A DNA stretch of 64,000 bases, taken from a virus. Taxonomy: Duplodnaviria; Caudoviricetes. Below, piece after piece: positions 23,215 through 44,331 of the stretch. The number at the start of each line of letters is the position of its first letter. Position 1 is the first letter of the stretch. The position numbers and the translations under genes are program-made. The stretch covers positions 96,001 through 160,000 of the IMG/VR virus record IMGVR_UViG_3300050821_001527; one strand, 5' to 3'. The notes beneath the pieces are model-generated. The model saw only the letters and a list, made by a program, of their open reading frames with translations. It was not told where the DNA came from and ran no database searches.

Positions 23215-23219
23215 TTTCT

Positions 23220-23296
23220 GGCCGCATAGCTCAAATAGATAGAGCAGCACCCCGCGAAGGTGAAGGTTGTAGGTGCGACTCCTACTGTGGCTACCA
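23220..23296 (+). tRNA. tRNA-Arg(GCG)-like with 6-nt anticodon loop
   Basis: CACC-CGCGAA-GGTG lacks U33; rest of cloverleaf intact. Confidence 0.6.
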
Positions 23297-23493
23297 TTTT
23301 CCCGCATAGTCCGTTGAGCAGCCCCGTAGCAACGAGGAAACAAAAGCTTGATGGTTCAGCCAAGCCGTGCGCCAGCGCGGTATTTGCGTGGTGCGAGTCC
23401 ACGGGGAACGATTTATCCCCCTGCTGGTATAGTCCAGCGAAGTAGGTGAGGCTAACCTATGAGTGGTTCGTAACGCACAAGAGGGAATTTTAT

Positions 23494-23576
23494 GGGCATG
23501 TAACCGAAGCAGTCCTCGAAACTGATTAACCGTAATTATGTTGCAAATGTGGGTGAGATTCCCTCCATGCCTACCA
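23494..23576 (+). tRNA. D-armless tRNA-Arg(TCG)-like RNA
   Basis: GGGCATG/CATGCCT-ACCA, CAGT-CCTCGAA-ACTG, long variable region. Confidence 0.55.
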
Positions 23577-23662
23577 ATTTCTCTGTTTGACAATCGAGCC
23601 TAAATAGTCTGCACAGACGGCGCGGGTTCGTAGATGTTGTGCGAAACGGAGGATTCATTTCT

Positions 23663-23755
23663 GTTCCCGTAGCTGAAAGACAGCCGGTGCCCTTATAAAG
23701 CACTTAATCGCTAGATTGGCGTAAGACTCAGGAGCGTTACCTGACGGGAATACCA
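23663..23755 (+). tRNA. tRNA with TAT (Ile) anticodon and long variable arm
   Basis: Loop CTTATAA, D arm GCTG-AAAGA-CAGC, V hairpin TAATC/GATTG; 7/5 or 8/4 fold possible. Confidence 0.7.
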
Positions 23756-23762
23756 AATTTTA

Positions 23763-23846
23763 CGCATCGTGACATAAGCGCGAATAGCACAGCCACACGT
23801 CTCAAAAATGTGAGTTTTAAGGGTGCGAGTCCCTTCGATGCGACCA
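23763..23846 (+). tRNA. tRNA-Leu(CAA), short V, expanded D region
   Basis: Loop CTCAAAA, T-loop TGCGAGT. Confidence 0.7.
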
Positions 23847-23852
23847 ATTTAT

Positions 23853-23928
23853 GTGCCTATGATGGAATAGCATACATACCAGCCTCAGAAGTTGGGTTTT
23901 GCAGGTGCGAGTCCTGCTAGGCATACCA
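23853..23928 (+). tRNA. tRNA-Leu(CAG), short variable loop
   Basis: Loop CTCAGAA, V=GTTTT. Confidence 0.8.
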
Positions 23929-23933
23929 TTTCC

Positions 23934-24017
23934 CGCTCCGTGACCTTGTAGCGAACAGCACAGCTTGCCGTCTTAGACACGGTGGTTTTGCAGGTGCGAG
24001 TCCTGTCGGAGCGACCA
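23934..24017 (+). tRNA. tRNA-Leu(TAG), short V, expanded D region
   Basis: Loop CTTAGAC, T-loop TGCGAGT. Confidence 0.75.
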
Positions 24018-24022
24018 ATTTA

Positions 24023-24110
24023 GCCAGTGTGGTGAAAGAGCAGACACACCATCTTGAGAAGGTGGCGCGAATAAAGTAGCGTGTAGGTGCGAATCCTATC
24101 ACTGGCACCA
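24023..24110 (+). tRNA. tRNA-Leu(GAG)
   Basis: Loop TTGAGAA, long V arm. Confidence 0.9.
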
Positions 24111-24192
24111 ATTTCCTAATGGAAGGTCTGTTAGGACACAGTAGCAGTCGAGATTCTAACCGCCTCGCCGGGGCGTTGCTACACGGCATTAC

Positions 24193-24267
24193 GGTCTATT
24201 GTTGAATGAGTTATCATAGTTCCCTGTCACGGAGCAATAACGGGTGCGAGTCCCGTATAGACCGCCA
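24193..24267 (+). tRNA. tRNA-Asp(GTC)
   Basis: Loop CTGTCAC, G73. Confidence 0.9.
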
Positions 24268-24345
24268 TTTTACGGCTGAGTTAGCGATTCCTGCGCGTGG
24301 GAACGAGACGATTCACTTCGTTTAACTGATGAAGCCGCCAATTTT

Positions 24346-24422
24346 GGGATAGAAGGTAAAGTAGTGGAACCGTTCCGTTGTCTGCGGAAAAAAAGTGGGT
24401 GCGACTCCCATCTATCTCGCCA
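24346..24422 (+). tRNA. tRNA-Asp(GTC), atypical loop TTGTCTG
   Basis: Cloverleaf, G73, U37. Confidence 0.75.
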
Positions 24423-24517
24423 TTTTGTCAGAGAAGTCCGTCAACCATGCGGTTGACCCGTATGGAGAACGTCGAGTTCAGACATATTGTATAGCTGGCC
24501 ACTTAGGACTTCCGTTC

Positions 24518-24595
24518 AGTCAGTGAGGGAGTAAGATAACCCCGACGCCTGCAAAGCGTTTCGTATAGTCGGAGCATTACCGACACTGACTTCCA
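24518..24595 (+). tRNA. tRNA-Cys(GCA)
   Basis: Loop CTGCAAA, U73, T-loop AGCATTA. Confidence 0.85.
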
Positions 24596-24599
24596 TTTC

Positions 24600-24676
24600 G
24601 TCCTAATGGTGTAAGGGAATTACAACACGGTAGTCTTCGGACTACAGATGCAAGCCAACTATTGCAAGGGACTCCA
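24600..24676 (+). pseudogene. Degenerate tRNA-like gene with anticodon arm capped by C-TTCG-G
   Basis: D arm and CCA present; GTAGTC-TTCG-GACTAC; 8-nt T-loop. Confidence 0.45.
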
Positions 24677-24680
24677 ATTT

Positions 24681-24757
24681 CGGTTTGTCGCCTAGTGTTC
24701 ATGGCACTCGCCTTGGGAGCGAGCATAACGCGGGTTAAAATCCCGCCAAGCCGACCA
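24681..24757 (+). tRNA. tRNA-Pro(TGG)
   Basis: CGG start, loop CTTGGGA, T-loop TTAAAAT. Confidence 0.85.
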
Positions 24758-24765
24758 TTTTTTAG

Positions 24766-24843
24766 ACGGGGTATAATGTCAGCAGCTAGACGGCTCCCTT
24801 CGGAGGGGAGAGGCCGTGGGTGCGAATCCCACTACCCCGACCA
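24766..24843 (+). tRNA. tRNA-Pro(CGG)
   Basis: Loop TTCGGAG, T-loop TGCGAAT. Confidence 0.9.
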
Positions 24844-24847
24844 TTTA

Positions 24848-24919
24848 TGCAGGAAGAATGAGATTCAAGCGGGCCTCATAAGCCTACCCCCGTGGACGCG
24901 ACTTCCACTCCTGCTTCCA
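24848..24919 (+). tRNA. tRNA(CAT)-like, reduced D arm
   Basis: Loop CTCATAA, T-loop CGCGACT. Confidence 0.55.
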
Positions 24920-24963
24920 TTTTTTATCGAACAGAAACCGTTCTCCGATATAATAGATATTTA

Positions 24964-25041
24964 CGCGGGGTGGACAAGTAGTAAGTCGTTGGCCTCATAA
25001 GCCAAATATCGTCAGGTGCGATTCCTGACCTCACGCAACCA
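24964..25041 (+). tRNA. Initiator-type tRNA-fMet(CAT)
   Basis: CGCGGGG start, C1:A72 mismatch, loop CTCATAA. Confidence 0.8.
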
Positions 25042-25044
25042 TTT

Positions 25045-25461
25045 ATGGAAGACGCCGTTCTCAACACGCAAAAAGCCTTGGACACCGCATTGGCATCATT
25101 GAATGCGCTGGCTAAAAAAGATTACGTTCCTCCGACAACCCCCGACATTGACCCCGAAACTGAAATGCCGATTAAAGGGAATGGCACGGAAGAATATGAT
25201 ACCGAAGACGCTTACGAGGATGGGGAAGAAGCAGTCCGTCTGTGCATTGAAATTGCCCAGTTGAGGCTAGAGGTCGAGGGCCAGCCCCGCCGTGCTATCG
25301 TCAACACGGAAAAGGCGGCAGAAATCCGAGCAAGGGGAGCGATTGACAAGGTAAGACCAGAGCGTCACCTGAGCGTTTCTCCCGAACTTATCAAGAGTAT
25401 CGAACATTCCGTAGCTAAACCGGAAATGATGTTCTTCGTTTTGGAAGAACCCAAGGAATAA
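25045..25461 (+). CDS. Acidic hypothetical protein
   Basis: 138-aa ORF between tRNAs. Confidence 0.65.
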   Translation: MEDAVLNTQKALDTALASLNALAKKDYVPPTTPDIDPETEMPIKGNGTEEYDTEDAYEDGEEAVRLCIEIAQLRLEVEGQPRRAIVNTEKAAEIRARGAIDKVRPERHLSVSPELIKSIEHSVAKPEMMFFVLEEPKE

Positions 25462-25467
25462 GATTTC

Positions 25468-25542
25468 GCGTTGTTGGCAGAGAAGTGATGCGCTTGCCTT
25501 CCAAGCAAGTTTAAGTGGGAGCATTACCCACACAACGCTCCA
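25468..25542 (+). tRNA. tRNA-Gly(TCC)
   Basis: Loop CTTCCAA, U73. Confidence 0.9.
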
Positions 25543-25545
25543 ATT

Positions 25546-25970
25546 TGTCCGAAGCTATAATCCCCGTGCGTAATAGCACTAAGCGCAAGTAGGCCGAAAG
25601 GCAGAACCGTGATGGTGGATGAACTGCTCGTCTAAAATATCGGCTACATAATTTAGTCAGGTCGTCGGTCTGTCGTTGCGGTGAGCAATCACCAAGCCTA
25701 TGGGACGGCGGCTCGAAAAGGTATCCGTAAGCTGGCAGGAATCGCTTGTGCAAGATTCCACTACCGAAGGAGAATGCGGCGAAAGCCAAGTTCGTTCGCA
25801 CTTGTAGTAGGTCAGTCATCTCAGCCGAGGCAGGCATTTTCAAAATCGTTAGGGTTAGTCCAACCACGGTAAAACGTGAGAGGGGTCATAAAAGACTGCA
25901 AGCGTCACCCTGCCTAAAACCCCCTGTTGGTGAGTGGATAGTTGAAAACGAGGTCAGCGATGACCTGACT
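25546..25970 (+). ncRNA. Candidate large (~425 nt) structured ncRNA
   Basis: No credible ORF or tRNA; GNRA-capped hairpins at 25593, 25680, 25778, 25952. Confidence 0.55.
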
Positions 25971-25973
25971 TTT

Positions 25974-26049
25974 AGCCGCATGGTGAAATTACAATCACAC
26001 AATCCTGCGAAGATTGAAGTCCCGGTGAGATTCCGGGTGCTGGCTACCA
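25974..26049 (+). tRNA. tRNA-Arg(GCG)
   Basis: Loop CTGCGAA, T-loop TGAGATT. Confidence 0.85.
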
Positions 26050-26053
26050 TTTT

Positions 26054-26128
26054 GCGACATAGGTGTTTATAGATACACGCGAGTCTTCCAAACTTGAGTA
26101 GTGAGTGCGATACTCACACGTCGCTCCA
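26054..26128 (+). tRNA. tRNA-Gly(TCC)
   Basis: Loop CTTCCAA, U73. Confidence 0.85.
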
Positions 26129-26192
26129 ATTTATGCACCCAAAACTTGCAAGTTACTCGACCCATGAATCGAGTGTGGTGCAACCAATTTAT

Positions 26193-26267
26193 TCCCTAGT
26201 AGTGTCAAAGTAGCACGTCTCCCTGTTAAGGAGTTTAGTGTTGGTGCGAGTCCAACCTTCGGAACCA
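26193..26267 (+). tRNA. tRNA-Asn(GTT), mismatched acceptor
   Basis: Loop CTGTTAA. Confidence 0.7.
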
Positions 26268-26279
26268 TTTAGTCAGCAT

Positions 26280-26364
26280 TCCAGAGTAGGAGAATTGGTA
26301 AACCCAGCGGACTGTTAATCCGCCGCGAAAGCAACTGCTCGTTCAAGTCGAGCCTCTGGAGCCA
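26280..26364 (+). tRNA. tRNA-Asn(GTT) with long variable arm
   Basis: Loop CTGTTAA, V hairpin GC-GAAA-GC, canonical GG/TTC elbow, G73. Confidence 0.85.
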
Positions 26365-26474
26365 TTTTCAAGACATTTCCCCTGACGAAAGCTCTACGAT
26401 GTAGAACATCGCACCAGCAAGTCATGGTTACATGACGTGTCCGTGGACGCACGGAAGCGGGGAGTTTGAATTTT

Positions 26475-26552
26475 GCATCCGTCAACCAAACGCGTAAATG
26501 ACTCGGGCTTTTAACCCAAAGGATGTGGTCACGCAAGCCACCGGATGCACCA
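26475..26552 (+). tRNA. tRNA-Lys(TTT)
   Basis: Loop CTTTTAA, T-loop CACGCAA. Confidence 0.75.
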
Positions 26553-26670
26553 ATTTCTACCTGAACACAAGTGCTATGTCATCGAGCCAAGTCACGGTTA
26601 TTGTGTATCGTGAAAATTCCGTTGACAATGTAGCAATGCGCGAGAAAGACGCGCACGGGTTCCTTTTCAT

Positions 26671-26744
26671 AGGGATATAGTATAAAAGTAGAACGGCACC
26701 CTGACACGGTGAAGGCGAAGGAGCGTTACCTTCTATCCCTACCA
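26671..26744 (+). tRNA. tRNA-Val(GAC)
   Basis: Loop CTGACAC, T-loop AGCGTTA. Confidence 0.9.
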
Positions 26745-26750
26745 TTTTAT

Positions 26751-26831
26751 GAGAATCGAGACGCGGGTGCATATCCCGCCTGCCTGTTTAAATACTTGCA
26801 GTAGCTTAGTAGCAGAGCGCGATTCGTCTCC
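26751..26831 (+). ncRNA. Circularly permuted tRNA-like (Y-RNA-like) RNA 2
   Basis: GAATCG/CGATTC closing stem; T-arm, loop-closed CTGC/GCAG acceptor, then D arm TAGCTTAGTAGCAGAGC. Confidence 0.75.
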
Positions 26832-26838
26832 CTTTTAC

Positions 26839-26917
26839 GGAACGGTAACTCAAATGGGTCAAGAGTGTTCGCCCGATTAGCGAAAGGTTGTGGACTCCCA
26901 AGCCACTCGTTCTACCA
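26839..26917 (+). tRNA. tRNA-Ile(GAT), loop CCGATTA
   Basis: Cloverleaf with irregular T-loop. Confidence 0.65.
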
Positions 26918-26922
26918 ATCAC

Positions 26923-26995
26923 GGTTCCATACGATAAAGCAGTCCCCATGCCCGATTAGCGTGGTGTCTTGGTGCGAGTCCAAGTGGAACTACCA
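26923..26995 (+). tRNA. tRNA-Ile(GAT), loop CCGATTA
   Basis: GGTTCCA/TGGAACT, T-loop TGCGAGT. Confidence 0.7.
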
Positions 26996-27000
26996 TTTAC

Positions 27001-27076
27001 TGCCCTTTAGCTCATTCAGCAGAGCGGCGTCTTGATAAGGCGAAGGTGGTCGGGGCAGAGCCGACAAGGGCAACCA
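27001..27076 (+). tRNA. tRNA-Ile(GAT)
   Basis: Loop TTGATAA, T-loop GGCAGAG. Confidence 0.9.
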
Positions 27077-27079
27077 ATT

Positions 27080-27244
27080 ATGAAACCATACGGATTGACA
27101 AAGAAAATCCTACACAACCATCCCGATGTTCACCCGCCGAAGGGCTGGGTCAACTGGTGGGAAAGCGAAACGAGGGACTGTCTCCGCAAGAAAGCAGAAC
27201 GCCAACAGGCGAAAAAACAGATTTTACAAGATTTGGCTTCGTAG
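27080..27244 (+). CDS. Small basic hypothetical protein
   Basis: MKPYG start; stop TAG is nt 8-10 of tRNA-Lys. Confidence 0.6.
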   Translation: MKPYGLTKKILHNHPDVHPPKGWVNWWESETRDCLRKKAERQQAKKQILQDLAS

Positions 27245-27311
27245 CTCAAGCGTCAAGAGCAGCCGCCTTTTAAGCGGAAGCGTCCGGGCAGTCAATCCGG
27301 TGGGGCCACCA
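27235..27311 (+). tRNA. tRNA-Lys(TTT)
   Basis: Loop CTTTTAA, T-loop CAGTCAA. Confidence 0.85.
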
Positions 27312-27457
27312 ATTTATAAACACCTAGACCGTGTGCGATACCGGCATGGTTTCGTGAGTCGGCTATGTCGAAGCCGAAGAAGATTCGCGGGACTTGGAGT
27401 GTGAAAGAAGCACGGGTGTATTTTTTTGAATAAAAAGCGGATTCGTTTATCATAGGT

Positions 27458-27835
27458 ATGCAAAACGTTTATCTGAACCGCGACGAACTCCTGCCGATTG
27501 TCAAGGAGAACAAGCAAAAGCACGACAACATTTTTTCCACAGCCGTTTCCGGCTATTGGGTCAAGGCCGAAGAAATCCTGAACGGCAAACTGAACAAGGT
27601 CAAAGCCAAGCAGCAAGTTGACAATTACCTTGGACTCAGCTATCCCGAAGACCATTCTGATGAATATGACCGAGTAATCAGGATGCTGGAACTTTCGTCT
27701 GATGACAAGATTCAGCTTACGTCTTCCGAGTTTGATTGCTATGTTCGCAATCAATGGAACTGGCGCAAGGCGTTCTTGACGGTCAATTCAACATACATTT
27801 CGGACTGGAACCCCATTTCCGGGGCTTCATTCTAA
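27458..27835 (+). CDS. Conserved-looking phage hypothetical protein
   Basis: P.DHSDEYDRVIRMLE motif. Confidence 0.7.
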   Translation: MQNVYLNRDELLPIVKENKQKHDNIFSTAVSGYWVKAEEILNGKLNKVKAKQQVDNYLGLSYPEDHSDEYDRVIRMLELSSDDKIQLTSSEFDCYVRNQWNWRKAFLTVNSTYISDWNPISGASF

Positions 27836-27915
27836 CAGTCTTGGTCGAGGCGTGGGTTCGATTCCGCCGTGTGGCTCCATGCCGCACGTAGCTTAGTGGC
27901 AGAGCGCGACCTGTT
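27834..27915 (+). ncRNA. Circularly permuted tRNA-like (Y-RNA-like) RNA 3, Thr/Gly-type acceptor
   Basis: 3' half (GGTCG, TTCGATT T-loop, CGTGTGGC-TCCA), 1 nt, then 5' half (GCCGCACG, D arm, CGACC); ends pair AACAG/CTGTT. Confidence 0.8.
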
Positions 27916-27916
27916 C

Positions 27917-27991
27917 GGGGCTATGGTGCAGAAGTAAGCACGTTAGGTTCTCAACCTGAAAACGTCGGAGCGTTACCGACTAGCCCTACCA
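27917..27991 (+). tRNA. tRNA-Glu(CTC)
   Basis: Loop TTCTCAA, T-loop AGCGTTA. Confidence 0.85.
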
Positions 27992-27997
27992 ATTTAC

Positions 27998-28073
27998 GGG
28001 GGAGTGGTGCATAAGTAAGCACGGTTGGCTTTCACCCAGCAGAAGCTCGGAGCGTTACCGGCCTCCCCTACCA
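27998..28073 (+). tRNA. tRNA-Glu(TTC)
   Basis: Loop CTTTCAC. Confidence 0.85.
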
Positions 28074-28078
28074 TTTCT

Positions 28079-28156
28079 GTAGCTGACCAGTAAGTCGTCG
28101 TCTGCTCTGGCTTTCAACCAGATGTGTAGTGGGTGCGAGTCCCACCAGCTATGCCA
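28079..28156 (+). tRNA. tRNA-Glu(TTC)
   Basis: Loop CTTTCAA, irregular D arm. Confidence 0.75.
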
Positions 28157-28219
28157 TTTCCGGGGTGCGCCTCGTCAATTCGTTGATAGGACGGCGAATA
28201 TATCACCCCACTTTTTCTC

Positions 28220-28297
28220 GGTTCCGTGGTGTAAATGGATTAAGCACAAGAGACTTTGACCCTCTTAGCTCCGGGTGCCAGCCGGACGGAACTGCCA
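28220..28297 (+). tRNA. tRNA-Gln(TTG)
   Basis: Loop CTTTGAC. Confidence 0.8.
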
Positions 28298-28304
28298 TTT
28301 TTAT

Positions 28305-28380
28305 TCCCTCTTGGATTGTAATAGTAGCAACTCGGGCTTTGAACCCGAAAGCGGTGGGGCAGAACCATCAGAGGGAGCCA
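28305..28380 (+). tRNA. tRNA-Gln(TTG)
   Basis: U1:A72, loop CTTTGAA, G73. Confidence 0.9.
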
Positions 28381-28465
28381 TTTATCGGGGTAAGGGTGTA
28401 TTCGTGTAACGACCACTCGGAAGGAGTCTGGAAGCTTACGGACAAACTTCGTCCCCATCTATTTT

Positions 28466-28541
28466 CGGAGTGTATTGTCAACAGCAGACGGCCCGCCTTG
28501 GAAGTGGGAGGTAGTTGGGGCAGCACCAACCATTCCGACCA
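28466..28541 (+). tRNA. tRNA-Pro(TGG)
   Basis: Loop CTTGGAA, T-loop GGCAGCA. Confidence 0.9.
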
Positions 28542-28545
28542 ATTT

Positions 28546-28728
28546 ATGAACACTGAAAAAATCGTAGGTCAAGAATATCCAGCCGAATGTCTCGTTGATT
28601 CCAAGACGGGTCTGCCGGTGATGATTCGTCATACCGAAGATTCGGACAGGATTCGTCAGTTGGCGAAGGCCAGCGCGGAGAACCTTCTGAGGGCTTTGCG
28701 AGACGAAACGGGGCTGACGCCCATTTAA
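28546..28728 (+). CDS. Hypothetical protein (60 aa)
   Basis: ATG just after tRNA-Pro. Confidence 0.55.
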   Translation: MNTEKIVGQEYPAECLVDSKTGLPVMIRHTEDSDRIRQLAKASAENLLRALRDETGLTPI

Positions 28729-28733
28729 TTTAC

Positions 28734-28809
28734 GGGTCTATAACTCAAATAGATAGAGCCTCGCCTTCTAAGCGATGGGATTCAGGTGCGACTCCTGATA
28801 GACCTACCA
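28734..28809 (+). tRNA. tRNA-Arg(TCT)
   Basis: Loop CTTCTAA, T-loop TGCGACT. Confidence 0.9.
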
Positions 28810-28852
28810 TTTCTAGTATAGCCACATGGCGTTTCACAAGTGCTTCAACTAG

Positions 28853-28860
28853 GTGTAATT
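28853..28860 (+). promoter_or_regulatory. Phage GTGTAATT promoter motif
   Basis: 6 nt upstream of ATG 28867. Confidence 0.6.
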
Positions 28861-28866
28861 CTAGGT

Positions 28867-29343
28867 ATGGGCCACAAAGCTACAAACGAACAACTGGCGG
28901 TTATTATCGCAGAGTCTATTTCCTTCTCTGAGGCAATGAGAAAATGCGATATGAAGCCAAGGGGAGCGTCTTACCAATGGTTTCAAAAACGAGTTAAGAA
29001 GCTCGGATTAGACACGTCTCATTTTAAGGGATACTCGGCTGGTGGTCTGGAAAGGGCCAAGCAGATAAAGAAGCATTGGTCGGAGATTCTTGTTTTAGGA
29101 GACGGTTCGGGCAGAGAAAGGTCAGAGCCTCTTAGGAGGGCTTTTAAAGAATACTGCTTAGAGCAGGCAGTCCCACATATTTGCAACGTCTGCAACGTCT
29201 GCAAGATGGAACCAATTTGGAATGGCCAGCCAATGATATTTCAAATTGACCACATCAATTCAATCAATTTCGATAACAGACCGCTGAACCTTCAATGGAT
29301 TTGCGGCAACTGTCATCAACAGAAAAATTCTAACGGCTACTAA
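28867..29343 (+). CDS. HNH homing endonuclease
   Basis: LGLDTSHF.G N-terminus, CxxC, QIDHINSI..DNR..NL..ICGNCH. Confidence 0.9.
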   Translation: MGHKATNEQLAVIIAESISFSEAMRKCDMKPRGASYQWFQKRVKKLGLDTSHFKGYSAGGLERAKQIKKHWSEILVLGDGSGRERSEPLRRAFKEYCLEQAVPHICNVCNVCKMEPIWNGQPMIFQIDHINSINFDNRPLNLQWICGNCHQQKNSNGY

Positions 29344-29410
29344 GCTAATCAAGTGAAAGCAGCGGACTGAAAATCCGTGGAGTTTGGCGCGATACCAAAA
29401 GTAGCCACCA
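29335..29410 (+). tRNA. tRNA-Phe(GAA)
   Basis: Loop CTGAAAA, T-loop CGCGATA. Confidence 0.9.
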
Positions 29411-29415
29411 ATTTT

Positions 29416-29563
29416 GGGTATATGTTGTAATGGCAGCAAAAAGGGCGGGAGAGTCGAGGGAATAGCAGACCAACTATAGCTCTGTAAGCCTAGTAGCTCG
29501 ATTTGAAAACCTGAATACTCGTCTATACGAGTGGCCTCGGTTCGATTCCGGGTATATCCACCA
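29416..29563 (+). tRNA. tRNA with ~52-nt hairpin insert in the anticodon loop, long V arm, G3:U70
   Basis: GGGTATA/TATATCC-ACCA, D arm with GG, ACTCGT/ACGAGT V arm, TTCGATT T-loop; identity unresolved. Confidence 0.65.
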
Positions 29564-29567
29564 ATCT

Positions 29568-29646
29568 CCGTCAGTAGCTCAAATGTGGTAAGAGCGTTGG
29601 TTTGAAACACCAAAGGTTGTCGTTCCCCAAACGACTTGACGGGCCA
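29568..29646 (+). tRNA. tRNA-Phe(GAA)
   Basis: Loop TTGAAAC, T-loop TCCCCAA. Confidence 0.75.
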
Positions 29647-29666
29647 TTTTAAGTGTATAATTCTGT

Positions 29667-29921
29667 GTGGAAGCACTAGCAAAACAGACCCTTCAATGTG
29701 ATGACTGCAAGAAAGTCATTGACACCCGCCGCGATACTGACCTTGAGGACAGCATCCAAGCGAAGTTGAAGAACCTCAAGGGCGACCCGCAGGTTTATCA
29801 TTTCTGCGCGGAAAGCTGCCTTGCCTCCTTTTTGCAGAAGCGCATCAAGAAAAAGAACGCCCGCGCCTCATACGACGCTTTCGCCTACGAGATTGATTTG
29901 TCCGGGGCAAAGGTTAAATAA
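29667..29921 (+). CDS. Small Cys-containing hypothetical protein
   Basis: CDDC, FC..SC. Confidence 0.6.
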   Translation: MEALAKQTLQCDDCKKVIDTRRDTDLEDSIQAKLKNLKGDPQVYHFCAESCLASFLQKRIKKKNARASYDAFAYEIDLSGAKVK

Positions 29922-30130
29922 TGAAATTTTCATCTTTCGCCAAGCTTGTGTTGATTTTCGGGGCAGCGATTATGCTCCTTGATGGTTGCGCTCTCGTTGG
30001 TTGTAATCACGCATTCCCGCAAGTCGAATGGTATTGGTCAGCCGATGCTAAAGCCTGTCGCAAGGAACACGCGATGGAAGCCCAGTGGCGACAGTCCGCA
30101 ACAAACAATTTAAGGCAGTCGTTCAAGTGA
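29921..30130 (+). CDS. Small lipoprotein-like protein
   Basis: Signal peptide with LDGC; stop lies in next tRNA. Confidence 0.55.
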   Translation: MKFSSFAKLVLIFGAAIMLLDGCALVGCNHAFPQVEWYWSADAKACRKEHAMEAQWRQSATNNLRQSFK

Positions 30131-30184
30131 ACAAGATGCTCTCATAAGGCGTCAAGGATGGAGCGTTACCATCGTCTGCTACCA
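30114..30184 (+). tRNA. tRNA(CAT) elongator Met or Ile2
   Basis: Loop CTCATAA, 4-nt D loop. Confidence 0.75.
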
Positions 30185-30189
30185 ATTTC

Positions 30190-30266
30190 GGATTCGTAGC
30201 TCAAATGCTAAGAGCAGCCGGTTCTTACCCGGAAGGTTGTGGCTCGTCAAGCCACCGAGTCCACCA
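30190..30266 (+). tRNA. tRNA-Lys(CTT)
   Basis: Loop TTCTTAC, T-loop TCGTCAA. Confidence 0.85.
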
Positions 30267-30344
30267 TTTATGGCCGTCAGCCTGAACCCCATCAGGCTAG
30301 TCCACCAAGGACGATGCAGAGGGTTATGCAACGGCATCCATTTC

Positions 30345-30416
30345 GCCAGTGCCGTCAGCACGGATTCGAGTTTTGTAAACTTGAAGCAGTCGGGGCAGCA
30401 CCGACCTCTGGCTCCA
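30345..30416 (+). tRNA. tRNA-Thr(TGT)
   Basis: Loop TTTGTAA, CAGC D tetraloop, U73. Confidence 0.8.
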
Positions 30417-30420
30417 TTTC

Positions 30421-30556
30421 GCCGTTCTAGTTCAATGTAGAACACGTCTCTCGAAAAGCCGATAGGCTCCCTGAACGGAGCAGTTAGTGGGGTGTTTGCC
30501 CTGCGATGTAATAAGGCCAGATGAACTGCTGGTGCCAAGTCCAGCGAACGGCTCCA
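30421..30556 (+). tRNA. Thr-type tRNA body with ~62-nt insert in the anticodon loop
   Basis: GCCGTTC/GAACGGC-TCCA, D arm GTTC/GAAC, anticodon stem CGTCT/AGATG. Confidence 0.7.
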
Positions 30557-30626
30557 AACTAGGCTGCGCGTGGTAGCCTCAGAGGGGTGAAAGTCCCTAA
30601 CCACGACAAATTTAATTCAATTTAAT

Positions 30627-30701
30627 CGCCCGTTCTGAATAATAGTAGTTCGTCGCGCTCTGAACGCGAAGGCGGTGGGGCAGAACCATCACGGGTGGCC
30701 A
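30627..30701 (+). tRNA. tRNA-Gln(CTG)
   Basis: Loop CTCTGAA, G73. Confidence 0.85.
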
Positions 30702-30706
30702 TTTAC

Positions 30707-30780
30707 GCGGGATTAGCTCAAAAGTAGAGCGAGTCGTTTACACCGACAGGACGAGGGAGCATTACCTTCATTCCGCACCA
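30707..30780 (+). tRNA. tRNA-Val(TAC)
   Basis: Loop TTTACAC. Confidence 0.9.
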
Positions 30781-30785
30781 TTTAC

Positions 30786-30862
30786 GCAATCGAAGCTACA
30801 GCAGACCGGCTCCCGGCTCTTAACCGGATTTGGTGAGGTTGCAACTACCTCCGATTGCACCA
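30786..30862 (+). tRNA. tRNA-Lys(CTT)
   Basis: Loop CTCTTAA, T-loop TGCAACT. Confidence 0.8.
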
Positions 30863-30866
30863 TTTC

Positions 30867-30946
30867 GCGGTCTTAGCTTAAACGGATAAAAGCCCTTCGC
30901 TCTTAACGAATGAGATGTCGCCCTCCAAGCAGGACAGACCGCACCA
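30867..30946 (+). tRNA. tRNA-Lys(CTT), aberrant T arm
   Basis: Loop CTCTTAA, 3-bp T stem with large loop. Confidence 0.65.
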
Positions 30947-31006
30947 ATTTGATTACACCCCTGCCGCCTCTTGACAATGCGTAATCGCAGGGGTTTTTCC
31001 ATTTAT

Positions 31007-31092
31007 GGCCGTGTGTAGCGTAAGGGAAAAGCAGAACCGATAGACTTAAAATCTGTTGCTACTTGAGGGTGCAAGACCGTCCACGGCTACCA
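31007..31092 (+). tRNA. tRNA-Leu(TAA), expanded D region, 8-nt V
   Basis: Loop CTTAAAA, T-loop TGCAAGA. Confidence 0.75.
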
Positions 31093-31111
31093 ATTTAGTG
31101 TAATGTTTGTC

Positions 31112-31189
31112 ATGGACAACTCAAAGCCTTGGTGGAAAGAAGAATGGTTTGAAACTTGGCTGAAAATTGCCCGCCGTCAGTTCTCGTAA
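31112..31189 (+). CDS. 25-aa Trp-rich micropeptide
   Basis: ATG 6 nt after GTGTAATG (31098-31105). Confidence 0.45.
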   Translation: MDNSKPWWKEEWFETWLKIARRQFS

Positions 31190-31193
31190 ATGC

Positions 31194-31201
31194 GTGTAAT
31201 A
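31194..31201 (+). promoter_or_regulatory. Phage GTGTAATA promoter motif
   Basis: 6 nt upstream of ATG 31208. Confidence 0.65.
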
Positions 31202-31207
31202 AGAAGT

Positions 31208-31966
31208 ATGGGAAAGTTACTAAGACTCGGAAGAAAGCAAGCCCGCTTCGACAAGCGCACTTTGAAGCTGGAAGACTACATTTCTGCTGATTTACAGTTC
31301 CCCCGCAAGGTTGTTTGGCAGAACAAGATTCCAAATTGGGGCATGATGCTTAACGACCAGTTGGGAGATTGCACCTGTGCCGCTGCCGGTCACATGATTA
31401 TGAACTGGACGGCCAATGCGGGCGTCCTCGTCACCCCAAACGACAACCAAATTCTTTCCGCTTACGAAGCCGTTGGGGGATACAACCCAAATGCCGCTCC
31501 CGACGCCAATGGAAACAACCCAACCGATAACGGTGCCGTTGAACTTGACGTTTTGAAGTATTGGCAGGGAACCGGAATCGCCGGTCACAAAATCGGGGCT
31601 TACGTCAGCATTGACCCGAAGAACAGACGCCACTTGAAGTTGGCTATCTGGCTGTTTGGGGGAATTTACACAGGTGTCAACCTCACGCAAGCGGACATGG
31701 ACGCCACCAACGCAAACCAGCCTTGGAAATACACCACCGGTTCCTCGATTGGCGGTCACGCCATTCCTGCCTTGGGATTCAACCAGCACGGCTTTCAATT
31801 CATTACATGGGGAGCCGTTCAAACGGCCACTCCTGAATGGGTCGCCAACCAAACCGAAGAAGTTTACGCCTTGATTTCCGCAGATTGGCTTGAAAACAAT
31901 GGCAATGCTCCCTCTGGTTTTGATGCTCAACAACTTGCCGCCGACTTAAAAAGCGTCCAAAACTAA
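31208..31966 (+). CDS. Papain-like (C1-type) cysteine peptidase
   Basis: DQLGDCTCAA catalytic Cys, GGHAI catalytic His, ITWG. Confidence 0.8.
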   Translation: MGKLLRLGRKQARFDKRTLKLEDYISADLQFPRKVVWQNKIPNWGMMLNDQLGDCTCAAAGHMIMNWTANAGVLVTPNDNQILSAYEAVGGYNPNAAPDANGNNPTDNGAVELDVLKYWQGTGIAGHKIGAYVSIDPKNRRHLKLAIWLFGGIYTGVNLTQADMDATNANQPWKYTTGSSIGGHAIPALGFNQHGFQFITWGAVQTATPEWVANQTEEVYALISADWLENNGNAPSGFDAQQLAADLKSVQN

Positions 31967-32010
31967 TTCAAAATATTTGCTTGGGCCAAGCCATCCGGGT
32001 ATAATATGGC

Positions 32011-33357
32011 ATGAGTCCGTCGTCTAATGCCGTTCAGCCGCTCAAGGTAGTTTTTTGCACTACCTGCAAGGGCCGCGTAAGTCACATCAAGAAAACCCTC
32101 CCCAAGAATTTGGCCGATAATCCCGGCGCGACCTTTATCCTTCTGGATTACAATGATAGTGGTGAATTAGCTTACCACGTCCGCAACGCCTGCCAGTCCG
32201 AAATTAAAGAGGGCAGGCTGGTGTATTATCAATACCGAGACAATGTTCCCTTCCGCATGGCTCACGCCAAAAACATGGCGCACAGGCTCGGAATCATGGA
32301 AGGCGCGGATATTCTGGTGAACTTGGACGCCGACAATCGCACGGGCGAAGGCTTCGCTGAATACATCGCGGAAAACTTCACCCGCACCCGCAACGACCCG
32401 CAGGAAATTTTCATGTGGAGCAGGATGATTAAAGGGGTTCTGAAACGCGGAATCACCGGGCGCATTGTGGTCAGCAAAAACGCTTTTCTTCTCGCTGGCG
32501 GATACGACGAACAGTATGCCACTTACTCCCCGGACGATAAAGATTTTGAAGCCCGCTTACGCAGACTGGGATTCTGTGCCCAAGAGATTGACAGCAAGTA
32601 TCTGGACGCGGTATATCACGACGACAACGTAAGATTCAAGGAATACGCCCATTTGCTTGAGACGAGCGCAGCATACGAAACCCCCTGCATCTCTCCGCAC
32701 AACCGCGTAGTCAATAACGGTAAATTTGGTTGCGGGGTTGTTTACAAGAATTTCGACGAGACTCCAATCACGCTTGCTCCGGTTCCTACCCGTATTTTTG
32801 GCATCGGGATGCACAAGACCGCAACGACCTCTTTAAGCGAAGCCCTGACCATCCTTGGGCTAAAGTCGGGTCATTGGGAACACCCGCGCTGGGCTAGACA
32901 AGTCTGGTCTGACATGAAGAATGTCGGTAGCTCTCCATCCGTGGAAAAGTATTATGCGCTTAGTGATTTGCCAATCGGAATTCTGTTTAGAGAATTGGAC
33001 GTGGCTTATCCGGGGTCGAAGTTCATCCTGACTGTCCGCGATGAATATGAATGGTTGAAGTCGGTTGAGAAACACTTTGATAGAAACATCAATCCCTACC
33101 GTAATTCATGGGACAACGATGCCTTTACCCACAGACTACACAACGAAATCTATGGACAGAGAAAATTCTCTTACCGTGTGTTCGTGGAGAGATACAGGAA
33201 GCACAACGCGGAAGTCTTGGAGTATTTCAAGGACAGACCGAATGATTTGCTGGTTATGAACGTTGACGATAAGACTGGATGGACAGAGCTATGCGCCTTT
33301 TTGGGCCAGCCAGTTCCTTCTATGAGCTATCCGAGAAAGTTCGTGACCAAGAAATAA
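32011..33357 (+). CDS. Glycosyltransferase (GT2/GT7-like) fused to P-loop sulfotransferase
   Basis: N-terminal LDAD, GGYDE..DD.DF..RL; C-terminal IFGIGMHKTATTSL, P.SKFILTVR, W..LC.FL. Confidence 0.85.
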   Translation: MSPSSNAVQPLKVVFCTTCKGRVSHIKKTLPKNLADNPGATFILLDYNDSGELAYHVRNACQSEIKEGRLVYYQYRDNVPFRMAHAKNMAHRLGIMEGADILVNLDADNRTGEGFAEYIAENFTRTRNDPQEIFMWSRMIKGVLKRGITGRIVVSKNAFLLAGGYDEQYATYSPDDKDFEARLRRLGFCAQEIDSKYLDAVYHDDNVRFKEYAHLLETSAAYETPCISPHNRVVNNGKFGCGVVYKNFDETPITLAPVPTRIFGIGMHKTATTSLSEALTILGLKSGHWEHPRWARQVWSDMKNVGSSPSVEKYYALSDLPIGILFRELDVAYPGSKFILTVRDEYEWLKSVEKHFDRNINPYRNSWDNDAFTHRLHNEIYGQRKFSYRVFVERYRKHNAEVLEYFKDRPNDLLVMNVDDKTGWTELCAFLGQPVPSMSYPRKFVTKK

Positions 33358-33370
33358 ATTGAATTTTATT

Positions 33371-33460
33371 GGAAGATAAAGTAGTGAGGCAGCTACAACG
33401 CGGTGCTAACGCGATTGCCCCTCTAAAGGGGGTGGGGTTCGAGTCCTCTATCTTCCGCCA
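33371..33460 (+). tRNA. tRNA-Ser(GCT)
   Basis: Loop GTGCTAA, long V, TTC T-loop, G73. Confidence 0.9.
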
Positions 33461-40397: not shown

Positions 40398-41260
40398 ATG
40401 CAAGACTGGATTTTCAAAGTCGGCAACTCCATCAATCGAATCGCCACTCACGATTCCAGTGACGGCGGGACGTGGAACGACGGCACCATATTGACGGAAT
40501 ATGGCATGGTAGATTGTATGGCCCAAGGTTCAAGCAATTTTACGCCGCACAGCCGATTTGATTTCGTCCACAAGGGTAAATGCTACAGCCGTTCTTACGA
40601 CAGGCGTTTTACCAAGCGTGGCCTGTCCATGATTGCAAAACGCTTTGCCAAGGAAATTTCGGAAACAAGATAACATGAAACTCACCAAAAAACTCATATC
40701 GCGCTGTGCCCCCATCATCAAATACAACGAAGCGGGGGAACGCCTGCTCGTCGGATACCGCCGCAAGTCCTCGGTGTCCAAAAAGGCCCGCGATACCTAC
40801 ATGCTTTCGATGCCGCAGGTTTTACCGCCAGTCATTGCACCGGACGGAAACCCGCTCTCGAAAATCGTAAGGGATTTGGTCGAGAAGGCCCAATCGGAAA
40901 TTGACAAGGAAAAACTGGAACAAGCCCTAAAGGAAGCCGAAGCCAATGAAAAAGCATCTTAACAAGATTATCGCCCTGTTCGCGGCGGGAGGGCTAGTGA
41001 TAGGTGGCTATCATTTCGGCTCTCAAAGCAAACCTCGCCCGCGCATAATGCTCTATTGGACGAATCCCATGTCGGCCAATACGAATGCGTTCGTCGAGAT
41101 ATGGGCGACCACCAACCTGCATAACTGGAACCTCAAGACTACCATCCCGTCCAGTCAAACCAATATCTACTTCCCGACCACGGAGATTGCGGAATTTTTC
41201 CGACTCAGAAATGCCTTGGTTTCTGGAAGTGTGACGCAGTATTCGGGCTGGAACCAATAA
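40398..41260 (+). other. Three hypothetical CDS (40398-40673; 40675-40962; 40946-41260 membrane-anchored)
   Basis: Contiguous same-strand ORFs. Confidence 0.55.
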
Positions 41261-41838
41261 TGAAAATCACCCCCAACAGTTTCTTCGACGGGGATTTCTA
41301 TAAGATAAATCTCAACGTTTATCTGTCGAACGGAGGCTTCAAGGATTGCCAGAAGCCCGAAGTCGCGCAAAGGCTGATAAACAAGTTGGGGCGTTTGACG
41401 TGGGGCGGATACGGGGAAAACCGCAAGGATATTTTTCAAAACAGTTATCTGGCCAAGACGGGGAACTTTTATCACTTGGGGGTTGACATTAACGTTCCAA
41501 AGGGAACGCCGGTTAAGGCTCCATTCGATTGCGAAGTCCTGCAAGCGTGGCCCGACCCCGATACCGACATTGGTTGGGGCGGAAGGGTCATCCTCAAGGC
41601 AAGCGATTGGCTACCGTTGCTTGTTCTCGGTCATTTGCACCCAAAGAAACTGCCCTTTTGCCGAGCCTACAAACAGGGAGAAGTTCTTGGGGAAGTCGGG
41701 ACATGGCCGCTCAACGGGAACACGTTTGAACATCTGCATGTCCAATGTATCAAGCATAATAAATTCGATAAATTTGACGGCTACGGAAGTCTTGCCCAGT
41801 TGAGGCACAACCCCGACCCGATGGAAGTAGATTTTTAG
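41260..41838 (+). CDS. M23-family peptidase-like protein
   Basis: HLGVDI...GTPV.AP, GH, G.VG..NG...HLH. Confidence 0.8.
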   Translation: MKITPNSFFDGDFYKINLNVYLSNGGFKDCQKPEVAQRLINKLGRLTWGGYGENRKDIFQNSYLAKTGNFYHLGVDINVPKGTPVKAPFDCEVLQAWPDPDTDIGWGGRVILKASDWLPLLVLGHLHPKKLPFCRAYKQGEVLGEVGTWPLNGNTFEHLHVQCIKHNKFDKFDGYGSLAQLRHNPDPMEVDF

Positions 41839-41840
41839 GC

Positions 41841-41869
41841 TTGACAACAACCGAATGATTTGATAGATT
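41841..41869 (+). promoter_or_regulatory. Sigma70-type promoter of rnpB
   Basis: TTGACA-17-TAGATT. Confidence 0.7.
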
Positions 41870-41871: not shown

Positions 41872-42140
41872 GGGTTCTGTTTTAAGAGCAAGTCCTACGC
41901 TGTGACGGGTGTAAGCCCCGGCATAGAGGACAAGTTCTCGGCTCTACAGCAGCCGTGGGAGGGAAAACCCGCTATTCACCACATGGTATGAGCAATCCTA
42001 AAGTCCCAAAGGCTAGTGCTGGCCGTAGTAAAGGGAAGGTTGGAGCAGCGACTATTAGCACGTCGCCACCGTAAGGTGAGAAAAATGTAGGACACCCGCA
42101 AGGGAACATAACCGAGGCCATTGCTCTTAAAACAGAATCT
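41872..42140 (+). ncRNA. rnpB: RNase P RNA, reduced (~269 nt)
   Basis: 19-bp P1, P2 GTCCTAC/GTAGGAC, GAGGACAAGTTCTCGG / AACATAACCGAGGC P4, P18 GTAA loop, J18/2 AGAAAAAT, P19 GCAA loop. Confidence 0.9.
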
Positions 42141-42161
42141 TTGGTAGCGAGTTGGTTTTTG

Positions 42162-42169
42162 GTGTAATA
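42162..42169 (+). promoter_or_regulatory. Phage GTGTAATA promoter motif
   Basis: 6 nt upstream of ATG 42176. Confidence 0.65.
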
Positions 42170-42175
42170 TCAGGT

Positions 42176-42787
42176 ATGAACAGTGGTATCTACTTGATAA
42201 CCAACATAATCAACGGCAAGAAATACATCGGGTCTTCGTCAAGATTGCATAGGCGTTGGCGCGAACACGTTAGAGATTTGGAGAGGGGAGTTCATCAAAA
42301 CCCCTATTTTCAAAAGGCATGGGACAAACATGGCCTTGCGAGCTTCCAATATTCCGTGCTTGAGGAATGTGATAGGACTCAACTCCTTGCGAGAGAGTCA
42401 TTTTGGATAGAAGCCCACCAGAGCTTTCAGAGGGAATTGGGATATAACCTATGCCGATTCCCTCAACATTATGCCCTTGGCCTCAAACGCCGTCCTGAAA
42501 CGATTGCCCGTATGAGCAAAGCTCTTAGCGGCCAAAACCATCCCGGTTGGGGCAAGAAGCTCCCCAAGTCTCAAGTTAAAAAAATGGCAGATGCTCAACG
42601 AGGGGTTTCTAAACCTACTTCCGGCAGCGAAAGGAAGATATTTGAATTGCTGTCGCCCGAAGGCAAACTCTTGAGAATAAAGGGATTAAGAGTATTTTGT
42701 CGTGAGCAAGACCTTAGCCCTTCCATGATTTGTCGGGTTCTCAGTGGGAAACAGGCCGTTCATAAAGGGTGGTCACTATCTTCTTAA
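42176..42787 (+). CDS. GIY-YIG homing endonuclease with NUMOD3-like repeats
   Basis: SGIY.I.N..NGKKYIGSS, R..H, GYN, N.P.WGKK. Confidence 0.9.
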   Translation: MNSGIYLITNIINGKKYIGSSSRLHRRWREHVRDLERGVHQNPYFQKAWDKHGLASFQYSVLEECDRTQLLARESFWIEAHQSFQRELGYNLCRFPQHYALGLKRRPETIARMSKALSGQNHPGWGKKLPKSQVKKMADAQRGVSKPTSGSERKIFELLSPEGKLLRIKGLRVFCREQDLSPSMICRVLSGKQAVHKGWSLSS

Positions 42788-42811
42788 AACAGTGTAATAA
42801 AAGGTAATAAT

Positions 42812-43695: not shown

Positions 43696-44331
43696 ATGAC
43701 TGATTTCTTAGACAGAAGCACCGTTTTGGTTCTGAACTCGCTCTATCAACCGATAGGGACGATTTCTCCCAAGAAGGCGCTGGTTGCCCTTAATTCGGCC
43801 TCAGACCAATGTGATATAGCCGCCAAAGCTATTGACATTCAGTATGCTGTAGGCGAAGACGGCAAGTATGACCTCGAAACCGTGGAGACGTTTACTCCAT
43901 GTTCTTTTGAGGAATGGCTGAACGTTACTGTTCGTCCGGGGCTTGACCAGATTATTCACACGTCGAAGATGCAGATTCGCTGCCCGACTGTGGTAATCAC
44001 GAACTACAGCAAGATTCCCATGCGTCGTTTCAGGGCCACGAAGTCCGTCCTTTACGAAATGCAGAAGGGCATCTGCGGTTATTCGGGCGTCAAGTGCAAC
44101 CCGAAGCAACTCAACATCGAACACAAGCTTCCGCGCAGCAAGGGCGGGAAGGACACGTTCGAGAACCTGATGCTCGTCAAGAAGGAAATCAACTTCGCTC
44201 GCGGCAACAAGCCGATGAAGGAACTTGGCCTCAAGCCGCTGTTCCGCCACCAAGAGCCGAAGCCGATTCCGGCGAGCTTCACAATCAAGACGGCTGTGCA
44301 TCCTGATTGGGGTTATTTTATTCAAAAATAA
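43696..44331 (+). CDS. HNH endonuclease (McrA-like)
   Basis: VLVLN..Y.PI, CGYSG, NIEH.LPRSKGG.DTFENL, N..RGN. Confidence 0.85.
   Translation: MTDFLDRSTVLVLNSLYQPIGTISPKKALVALNSASDQCDIAAKAIDIQYAVGEDGKYDLETVETFTPCSFEEWLNVTVRPGLDQIIHTSKMQIRCPTVVITNYSKIPMRRFRATKSVLYEMQKGICGYSGVKCNPKQLNIEHKLPRSKGGKDTFENLMLVKKEINFARGNKPMKELGLKPLFRHQEPKPIPASFTIKTAVHPDWGYFIQK

Follow-up and report, generated by a model that had tools for sequence, protein, structure and literature searches.

An RNase P-like RNA gene in a large soil phage

The window analysed here is a stretch of 64,000 nt (positions 96,001 to 160,000) of IMG/VR record IMGVR_UViG_3300050821_001527, which represents an uncultured soil phage and comprises 202,882 bp at 91% completeness. 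In an intergenic position of the window, at 41872–42140 on the plus strand, lies an RNA of ~270 nt that resembles the RNA of ribonuclease P (RNase P), which trims precursor tRNAs, and consists of a bacterial type A catalytic domain (C-domain) joined to a vestigial specificity domain (S-domain). Directly 5′ of it is an open reading frame (ORF) for an M23 peptidase (41260–41838), and directly 3′ a plus-strand gene assigned by Pfam to the GIY-YIG/NUMOD3 homing endonucleases (42152–42787, with a probable start ATG at 42176). The plus strand of 41872–42140 folds with a minimum free energy of −100.8 kcal/mol, corresponding to z = −4.3 against dinucleotide shuffles.

A sigma-70-type promoter on the plus strand (41841–41869), made up of TTGACA, a 17-nt spacer and TAGATT with an upstream TG, ends 2 nt before P1, the first helix of the RNA, and the predicted transcription start lies near 41876. 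In the family described below, 15 of 27 members have a comparable promoter immediately before the RNA, and in 12 of these 15 the TTGACA is exact. Two soil metatranscriptomes from separate studies contain contigs without differences to the window at 41888–42668 and 41957–42107; RNA-library contig X3 begins at 41888 and extends through the RNA into the GIY-YIG ORF, and no RNA-library contig of the two metatranscriptomes covers the upstream M23 peptidase gene. Being assembled, these contigs show presence only, neither strand nor level, and window parts lacking coverage in the RNA runs do not count as evidence of silence. The phage RNA gene is apparently expressed.

The RNA belongs to a family found in uncultured phages

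Paired (P), joining (J), loop (L) and conserved (CR) regions are named here as in RNase P RNA. A first gapped pattern, built on three RNase P-like blocks, gave 62 matches, among which only loci L074 and L086 were true; a repeated 192-nt family among these matches proved to be a prophage gene, not an RNA homologue. A second pattern, taken from the region common to the window, L074 and L086, retrieved 13 viral loci, and a variant of it 32 metagenome loci, giving 28 distinct sequences in all. Because these early patterns fixed CR-IV, CR-V and the loop of an extra hairpin, H1, an independent scan was made with J5/15 and L15/P15 as its sole anchors. This yielded 26 loci, 16 of them new and distinct, and the independently found members again contain GAGGAAGUUC, GAGAUAAAUGU and (A/C)CAGAANNNNGGCUA. 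In total, the family comprises at least 44 distinct homologues, ~240–310 nt in size, all of them in uncultured phage or metagenome contigs, several of which span 100–350 kb. It is not in Rfam 15.

A pattern scan of one genome per species, covering 185,579 prokaryote species, found no true copy of the RNA, the sole match being a chance one inside a Francisella aminotransferase-like ORF, and BLAST against 50,697 deposited phage genomes gave no match for the window RNA or for two consensus-like members. An exact 16-mer of CR-I matched viral contigs 14 times, always by chance and in high-GC coding DNA. When synteny was followed instead, the upstream M23 peptidase had no relatives in viral contigs, and relatives of the terminase, although present, were short fragments lying well away from the RNA.

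A further conserved GC-rich stretch, which may be a second structured RNA, was seen immediately downstream of the RNA in several members (L099 at ~2390–2480, L101 on the minus strand, and L145, L152, L155 and L158, just 3′ of the RNA); examples read GGGUGC...ACGACA, or GACGCCC.UAAGG...GGGCUGCG.AGGUGACGC.

Covariation supports the structure model

From 27 aligned family sequences, RNAalifold combined with reading of the alignment gave a full structure model. RNAalifold itself returned P3, a long-range P4 in which one U is unpaired, two hairpins on the 3′ side and one helix of the pseudoknot type. In the complete model, the 5′ half runs P1, P2, P3, P4 5′ strand, P5 5′ strand, P6 5′ strand, P7 5′ strand, one hairpin, P7 3′ strand and P5 3′ strand, and the 3′ half J5/15, P15 5′ strand, P16 5′ strand, P17 (the loop of which is the P6 3′ strand), P16 3′ strand, L15, P15 3′ strand, H1, P18, J18/2, P2 3′ strand, J2/4, P4 3′ strand and P1 3′ strand. 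P2/P4, at the core, and P6 form pseudoknots, and P4 carries a bulged U.

The model was tested in two ways. A column-based test was limited to the helices kept in register by MAFFT (P2, P3, P4, P5, P6, P15, H1 and P18); MAFFT puts P16 and P17 in inconsistent registers. Standard pairs filled 95.5% of 1225 pair cells, compared with 33–41% when the 3′ partner was slid by 1–3 columns. Changes on both sides occurred in 36 of 46 pairs, a count matched by none of 500 shuffles, and the covariation score was 0.661 versus 0.193 in the control (0/500 shuffles). The second test, a partner swap that needs no register, set the duplex energy of each member's own 5′ and 3′ windows against that of permuted partners, helix by helix; for all 11 helices none of 2000 permutations reached the observed mean (z: P1 −11.9, P2 −10.9, P3 −11.6, P4 −10.9, P5 −8.9, P6 −6.9, P7 −3.4, P15 −5.3, P16 −7.6, H1 −11.3 and P18 −8.7). 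Among the 16 independently found members, P15 was complementary in 16 of 16, although the pattern had permitted non-complementary combinations, and the covariation of H1, P18 and P5 was replicated; there the P4 test was low in power, and P2 covariation was not significant with crudely defined windows.

In the window, all parts lie on the plus strand. P1 pairs 41872–41891 with 42121–42140, includes a 17-nt perfect inverted repeat and covaries. The 5′ strand of P2 (GUCCUAC, 41892–41898) pairs with GUAGGAC at 42087–42093, with double changes in 5 of 7 pairs, and the P3 hairpin recovered by RNAalifold follows at 41900–41926, being 96% paired with 7 of 9 pairs compensatory. J3/4 and the 5′ strand of P4 (41927–41941) make up the CR-I-like segment AGGACAAGUUCUCGG, with the bulged U at ~41935; P4 is 97% paired apart from one unpaired U, and all 4 of its variable pairs are compensatory. 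The 5′ strand of P5 (41942–41944) pairs with 41990–41992, showing double changes in all 4 pairs tested, and that of P6 (41947–41951) forms a pseudoknot with the P17 loop at ~42017–42021, in which 6/6 pairs are compensatory. The S-domain remnant occupies 41955–41982, where P7 (GUGG/CCAC, 41955–41958 and 41979–41982) encloses GAG, a hairpin GGG-AAAA-CCC (41961–41970) and the loop GCUAUUCA.

On the 3′ side, J5/15 (C-A-A) and the P15 5′ strand UCC take up 41993–41998, the J5/15 residues being the equivalents of E. coli C247 A248 A249; the AA occurs without exception (27/27). P15, 100% paired, shows double changes in each of its 3 pairs. The arm above it consists of P16 (42004–42007 and 42033–42036), which covaries, and P17 (42011–42014 and 42021–42024), the loop of which forms P6; P17 stems read from alignment A2 are GGCU/GGCC, GAAU/AUUC, CGUAU/AUACG and GGG/CCC. 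The GGU of L15 (42038–42040) stands directly 5′ of the P15 3′ strand GGA (42042–42044) and every one of the 27 aligned members has it, 26 in the same column and one displaced by a column. H1, an extra hairpin between P15 and P18 (42048–42066), has a 5-bp stem that is 100% paired with 5/5 pairs compensatory, and in the window its loop is UAUUAGCAC. H1 recurs in 16/16 independently found members with varying loops, and the seemingly invariant loop was therefore rejected as an artefact of the search patterns. P18 (CACC-GUAA-GGUG, covarying) and J18/2 with its CR-IV-like AGAAAAAU lie at 42067–42086. J2/4 contains a P19-like hairpin (CCC-GCAA-GGG, 42095–42104), which in alignments A1 and A2 is confined to the window and L074; J2/4 measures 13–14 nt in these two and 4–9 nt in other members. 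The remainder of J2/4 and the P4 3′ strand form the CR-V-like AACAUAA-CCGAGGCC (42105–42119). Of 87 conserved columns, the window copy departs from the family at only 6, two of which make up a compensatory P6 pair.

The RNA is thus strongly folded and has P1, P2, P3, a bulged-U P4, P18, the P19-like hairpin and a middle domain of very small size, as a prior sequence-only reading of the window had proposed for these elements; covariation in the 27 homologues backs the structure. Other details of that reading were misassigned. It had declared P6, P16 and P17 absent, but its TCCC/GGGA is P16 and its GGCT/GGCC is P17, rather than P10/11 and P12, and the P17 loop pairs as P6; its P15 (42048–42066) is the extra helix H1; and the GGU it had missed in L15 stands 5′ of the covarying P15 3′ strand with an E. 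coli-like spacing.

The catalytic domain matches that of bacterial type A RNase P RNA

With the authentic E. coli rnpB (M1 RNA) as reference, structurally equivalent junction positions were compared. The family consensus is identical to M1 RNA at 40 of 43 anchored positions and the window copy at 37 of 43; in segments that had never been in a search pattern, 22 of 24 positions are identical. At J3/4 and the P4 5′ strand, the family has GAGGAAGUUC and E. coli GAGGAAGUCC (G61–C71, A65 skipped; consensus 9/10), and member L117 shows the exact canonical GAGGAAAGU spacing. The P5 3′ end and J5/15 agree at 6/6 positions (C-AA ... AAA versus C247 A248 A249 ... A254–A256), and L15, the P15 3′ strand and J15/18 at 7/8 (GGUU-GG-GC versus G292 G293 U294 A-GG-GC, G292–C301). 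For J18/2, the family AGAUAAAUG matches E. coli AGAUGAAUG (A328–G336) at 8/9 positions in the consensus and 7/9 in the window, and for J2/4 with the P4 3′ strand, ACAGAA..GGCU matches A347–A352 and G356–U359 at 10/10 and 8/10, respectively.

The features of a type A catalytic domain are all present: a long-range bulged-U P4 with a GAGGAAAGUCC-like CR-I and a ACAGAANNCGGCU-like CR-V on its flanks; P1, P2 and P3 with P2 crossing P4; the J5/15 adenosines (A248/A249) and J18/2 (CR-IV), the latter recurring in members found without requiring CR-IV; and the P15-L15(GGU)-P16-P17 arm with the P6 pseudoknot, the feature that separates type A from type B. The covarying fold and the anchored identities together bear out the sequence-only proposal that this is an RNA of the RNase P type whose catalytic domain is intact.

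Like E. coli M1 RNA (type A, RF00010), the phage RNA has the same catalytic-domain helices in the same order (P1–P7, P15–P18) and both pseudoknots, and its GGU is spaced from P15 as is G292 G293 U294. Unlike type A, it is without P8–P14 and CR-II/CR-III and without the L18, L8 and L9 docking partners, it has the extra H1 where E. coli has a 6-nt J15/18, its J3/4 is usually one A shorter, and it is phage-encoded, beside tRNA genes and undetected by RF00010. Type B RNA (RF00011) has P5.1, P10.1 and P15.1 and is without P6, P16 and P17, whereas the phage RNA has P6, P16 and P17 and gives no match to that model; only the position of H1 recalls P15.1.

Engineered or minimal bacterial RNase P RNAs include isolated C-domain constructs and the Mycoplasma-derived 'Micro P', and even when its specificity domain is incomplete or missing, a bacterial catalytic domain can cleave pre-tRNA, above all in the presence of the protein subunit; it is therefore plausible that the phage RNA is active. 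Those RNAs are laboratory truncations or retain P10–P12, while the phage family is natural, selected and S-domain-minimal.

In overall design there is also a likeness to archaeal type T RNase P, which works with a hairpin-like S-domain (PMC13462272): in both, the core including P15–17/P6 is kept and the S-domain is cut to one stem (P7–P9 in type T) with an internal loop, and type T also escaped earlier bioinformatic detection (PMC13462272). The phage RNA differs in having bacterial-type sequences, P18 and H1, in being viral and in giving no match to RF02357, and it presumably works with a single bacterial protein and not with Pop5, Rpp30, Rpp29 and L7Ae. This is a resemblance of design, not membership. 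An animal-virus RNA (PMC3001073) is likewise a virus-encoded relative of RNase P RNA, but it is of the eukaryotic nuclear type and has no tRNA-array context.

The specificity domain is reduced to P7 and one hairpin

Between the P5 strands there are 43 nt in the window and 40–101 nt in the first 27 members, compared with 164 nt in E. coli; the remnant is thus about half as long as the 85–90 nt given in the sequence-only reading. P8–P14 with CR-II/CR-III, which form the interleaved T-loops, were not found there, only P7 and one variable hairpin. The larger members have the same P7 frame and an expanded, branched hairpin, at the site of GGG-AAAA-CCC in the window, with no recognisable CR-II/CR-III; they were rejected as S-domain intermediates, since only this hairpin is expanded.

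An internal loop, GAG / CGUUAnnA, is conserved between P7 and the single hairpin. For archaeal type T RNA, a single T-loop in the S-domain internal loop has been proposed to lie against the tRNA elbow (PMC13462272), and the phage loop sits where type T RNA is modelled to keep it (PMC13462272). The elbow contact may therefore not be lost completely. Of the suggestion that the RNA has no T-loop motif, the absence of the canonical CR-II/CR-III module stands, whereas the conserved loop at the type T site may or may not be a T-loop.

The RNA gene accompanies phage tRNA genes

tRNA genes occur in 22 of 28 loci, within 1 kb of the RNA in 19 and within 100 nt in 9. All 178 neighbouring tRNAs (178/178) are on the strand of the RNA, and ~90% or more of them encode the 3′-CCA. 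Almost all tRNA genes of the phage, at window 22163–33460, and of related loci encode this end, which fits an RNase P keeping the CCA-binding GGU. Besides a large tRNA array, the phage record holds a transfer-messenger RNA (tmRNA) gene (window 12618–13001; Rfam 140.5 bits), for which ARAGORN predicts an unusual tag peptide. No RnpA gene (PF00825) was found in the window's phage or in four large carrier records.

The sequence-only reading had further held that the reduced RNA co-evolved with A18/G55 and D-armless tRNAs as an orthogonal pair. T-loop positions 54–56 were therefore tallied for the tRNAs near each family member, and the expected co-occurrence failed: canonical UUC T-loops prevail in most carriers (L104 25/26, L105 20/23, L134 14/18, L109 9/9, L137 7/8, L115 6/6 and L130 6/6), and G55 (UGC/AGC) is dominant only in the window (13/16), L128 (6/7), L123 (10/12) and L138 (2/2), where L128 carries the L107 RNA and L123 the L108 RNA. 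Because most carriers of the reduced RNA have canonical U54-U55-C56 T-loops, the reduction of the specificity domain is older and wider than the G55 trait. The terminase of one G55 carrier, G003 (the record of L107), is 50% identical to that of the window phage, and no relative was detectable in the other three large carriers. The G55 trait looks like a lineage feature within the wider set of phages having the RNA, and the reduction may, at most, have permitted it. As a separate observation, the terminase large-subunit homologue of G003 (C1:11397–14501) matches in two pieces within one open frame of 1047 aa, which suggests an intein or another in-frame insertion.

A homing endonuclease gene adjoins some copies of the RNA

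As in the window, orthologues of the GIY-YIG/NUMOD3 protein (45–47% identity) are encoded directly 3′ of the RNA in L104/L139 (L104 ~3176–3799, minus strand) and L115/L143 (L115 1716–2309, plus strand). Only 3 of the first 28 distinct family members have the endonuclease beside them, and its gene is single-copy in the window's phage genome. An 11-mer from the P1 3′ strand, TCTTAAAACAG (42125–42135), is repeated at the GIY-YIG stop codon (42782–42792). Free-standing GIY-YIG homing endonucleases are found in T4-like phages; among them are the Seg proteins, one of which, SegB, belongs to the T4 tRNA region. The present case fits a free-standing homing endonuclease that travels with a conserved RNA gene and is no part of the ribozyme: as with the Seg endonucleases, the GIY-YIG/NUMOD3 gene adjoins a conserved gene with which it can home, but in the window this neighbour is the RNase P-like RNA.

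An apparent second RNA copy after the endonuclease in L104 was rejected, being a tRNA-like gene with a common promoter and leader module. This promoter-plus-leader module (TTGACA ... AGTTCTTTGAATTT; ~3030–3100, minus strand) is used twice in L104, before the RNase P-like RNA and before the long tRNA-like gene that follows the endonuclease. In the window, an HNH endonuclease ORF (43696–44331) lies 0.9 kb downstream of the GIY-YIG gene, which places two homing-type nucleases within 2.2 kb.

Discussion

The phage RNA is, in our judgement, very probably homologous to RNase P RNA. Several points weigh against this assignment. Rfam 15 was searched on both strands, at gathering thresholds and at E ≤ 10, with the window, the RNA region alone, 7 relatives and 6 larger relatives: no RNase P model (RF00010, RF00011, RF02357 or any other) matched the window or its relatives at E ≤ 10, and no Rfam family of any kind fell on the RNA in the window or at the 13 relatives' loci, while a genuine bacterial rnpB, as positive control, scored 333 bits in the same search. 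The RF00010 gathering score of 100 bits was not reached, the search of the phage genome giving only an irrelevant 34-nt hairpin, and single-family searches of the whole phage genome with RF00011 and RF02357 found nothing relevant. An nhmmer profile of the family missed E. coli rnpB in 0.93 Mb of searched sequence that included it. Because the Rfam models do not detect the family and the sequence profile does not bridge to rnpB, homology rests on a structure-anchored, hand-made alignment; the link to RNase P is structural and positional, without a database E-value, and this is its main weakness. Furthermore, the search patterns imposed part of the apparent conservation (CR-IV, CR-V and the H1 loop), a problem that the independent scan eased; the window copy is unusual at conserved core positions, in that J3/4 contains an additional C, the G350 equivalent is a U (as in L155) and the outer P4 pair is an A-C mismatch; and the RNA-library contigs could stem from contaminating DNA.

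The same missing matches, together with the endonuclease directly 3′ and the 11-nt repeat flanking it, would be expected if the element were unrelated to RNase P, either another structured RNA tied to the GIY-YIG gene, for example one that resembles an intron or marks a homing site, or a host fragment that was captured and is decaying. We regard this as extremely improbable: the endonuclease is absent beside most members, no intron family matches, exons are not split and the flanking ORFs are complete and separate, and the anchored identities come with an identical helix topology and two pseudoknots. A decaying fragment is excluded by purifying selection and abundant compensatory change over at least 44 sequences. 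An RNA that does not itself work as an enzyme and instead redirects or inhibits host RNase P, by binding host RnpA or the ends of pre-tRNAs, would agree with the missing S-domain and with the need to compete for the host protein, no phage RnpA having been found, and the animal-virus RNase P-like RNA has been discussed as a possible decoy (PMC3001073). Such a role is nevertheless very unlikely, given that a protein sponge would not need the conserved bulged-U P4, J18/2, J2/4 and A248/A249 equivalents, nor an L15 GGU held by a covarying scaffold of P15, P16, P17 and P6, and that placement in tRNA operons needing 5′ processing favours activity.

An orthogonal system, in which the reduced ribozyme is specialised for A18/G55 and D-armless tRNAs that host RNase P handles poorly and has co-evolved with them, has in its favour the missing canonical elbow-reading module, the G55-dominated tRNA sets of the window phage and three other carriers, and the related terminase of G003. 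We consider it unlikely, however: canonical UUC T-loops in most carriers go against it, in alignment A2 no feature of the RNA separates the G55-associated members from the rest, the standard CCA and −1 contacts are kept, and contact with the elbow could persist through the conserved internal loop, in the manner proposed for type T. A looser version is a little less doubtful, though still tentative: a phage ribozyme with the host protein might provide phage-dedicated processing, and relaxed dependence on the elbow might have let some lineages, the window phage among them, evolve A18/G55 and D-armless tRNAs, resulting in a partly orthogonal pathway based on a natural enzyme that is hardly more than a catalytic domain. 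If so, the rewired tRNAs might evade host enzymes or tRNA-targeting defences.

An RNase P RNA that is active together with host RnpA is the reading we favour as likely; we infer its catalytic activity, its use of host RnpA and its biological benefit. The RNA would be transcribed from its own sigma-70 promoter, beside the phage tRNA genes, and would most likely assemble with host RnpA, since no phage copy of rnpA was found. The holoenzyme would then cleave the 5′ leaders off the phage's many CCA-encoding pre-tRNAs. The retained CCA-binding GGU and A248 equivalent suggest that the acceptor end is read in the ordinary bacterial way, with the L15 GGU pairing to the substrate 3′-CCA and the A248 equivalent contacting nucleotide −1. 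Catalysis would take place in an active site built from P4, J3/4, J18/2 and J2/4, with the leader bound by the protein, and long-range measurement of the elbow by canonical interleaved T-loops would go unused. The benefit may lie in extra or host-independent processing capacity for the phage tRNA arrays.

RNase P RNA is among the few universal ribozymes. A full-text literature search found no report of a bacteriophage-encoded RNase P RNA, and a minimal phage version appears to be undescribed. Current covariance models miss the class, and RNase P RNAs in viromes are therefore probably under-annotated. The family offers a compact ribozyme of ~240–310 nt in dozens of natural variants for structural and engineering work. 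Should the RNA be active, 5′ maturation of tRNAs would join the tRNAs, tmRNA and synthetases among the translation functions of large phages. It would also be a bacterial RNase P kept by natural selection with hardly any specificity domain, and would bear on two long-standing questions, namely whether a catalytic domain by itself suffices as an enzyme and represents the ancestral form, and how much the domain that measures the elbow matters in vivo.

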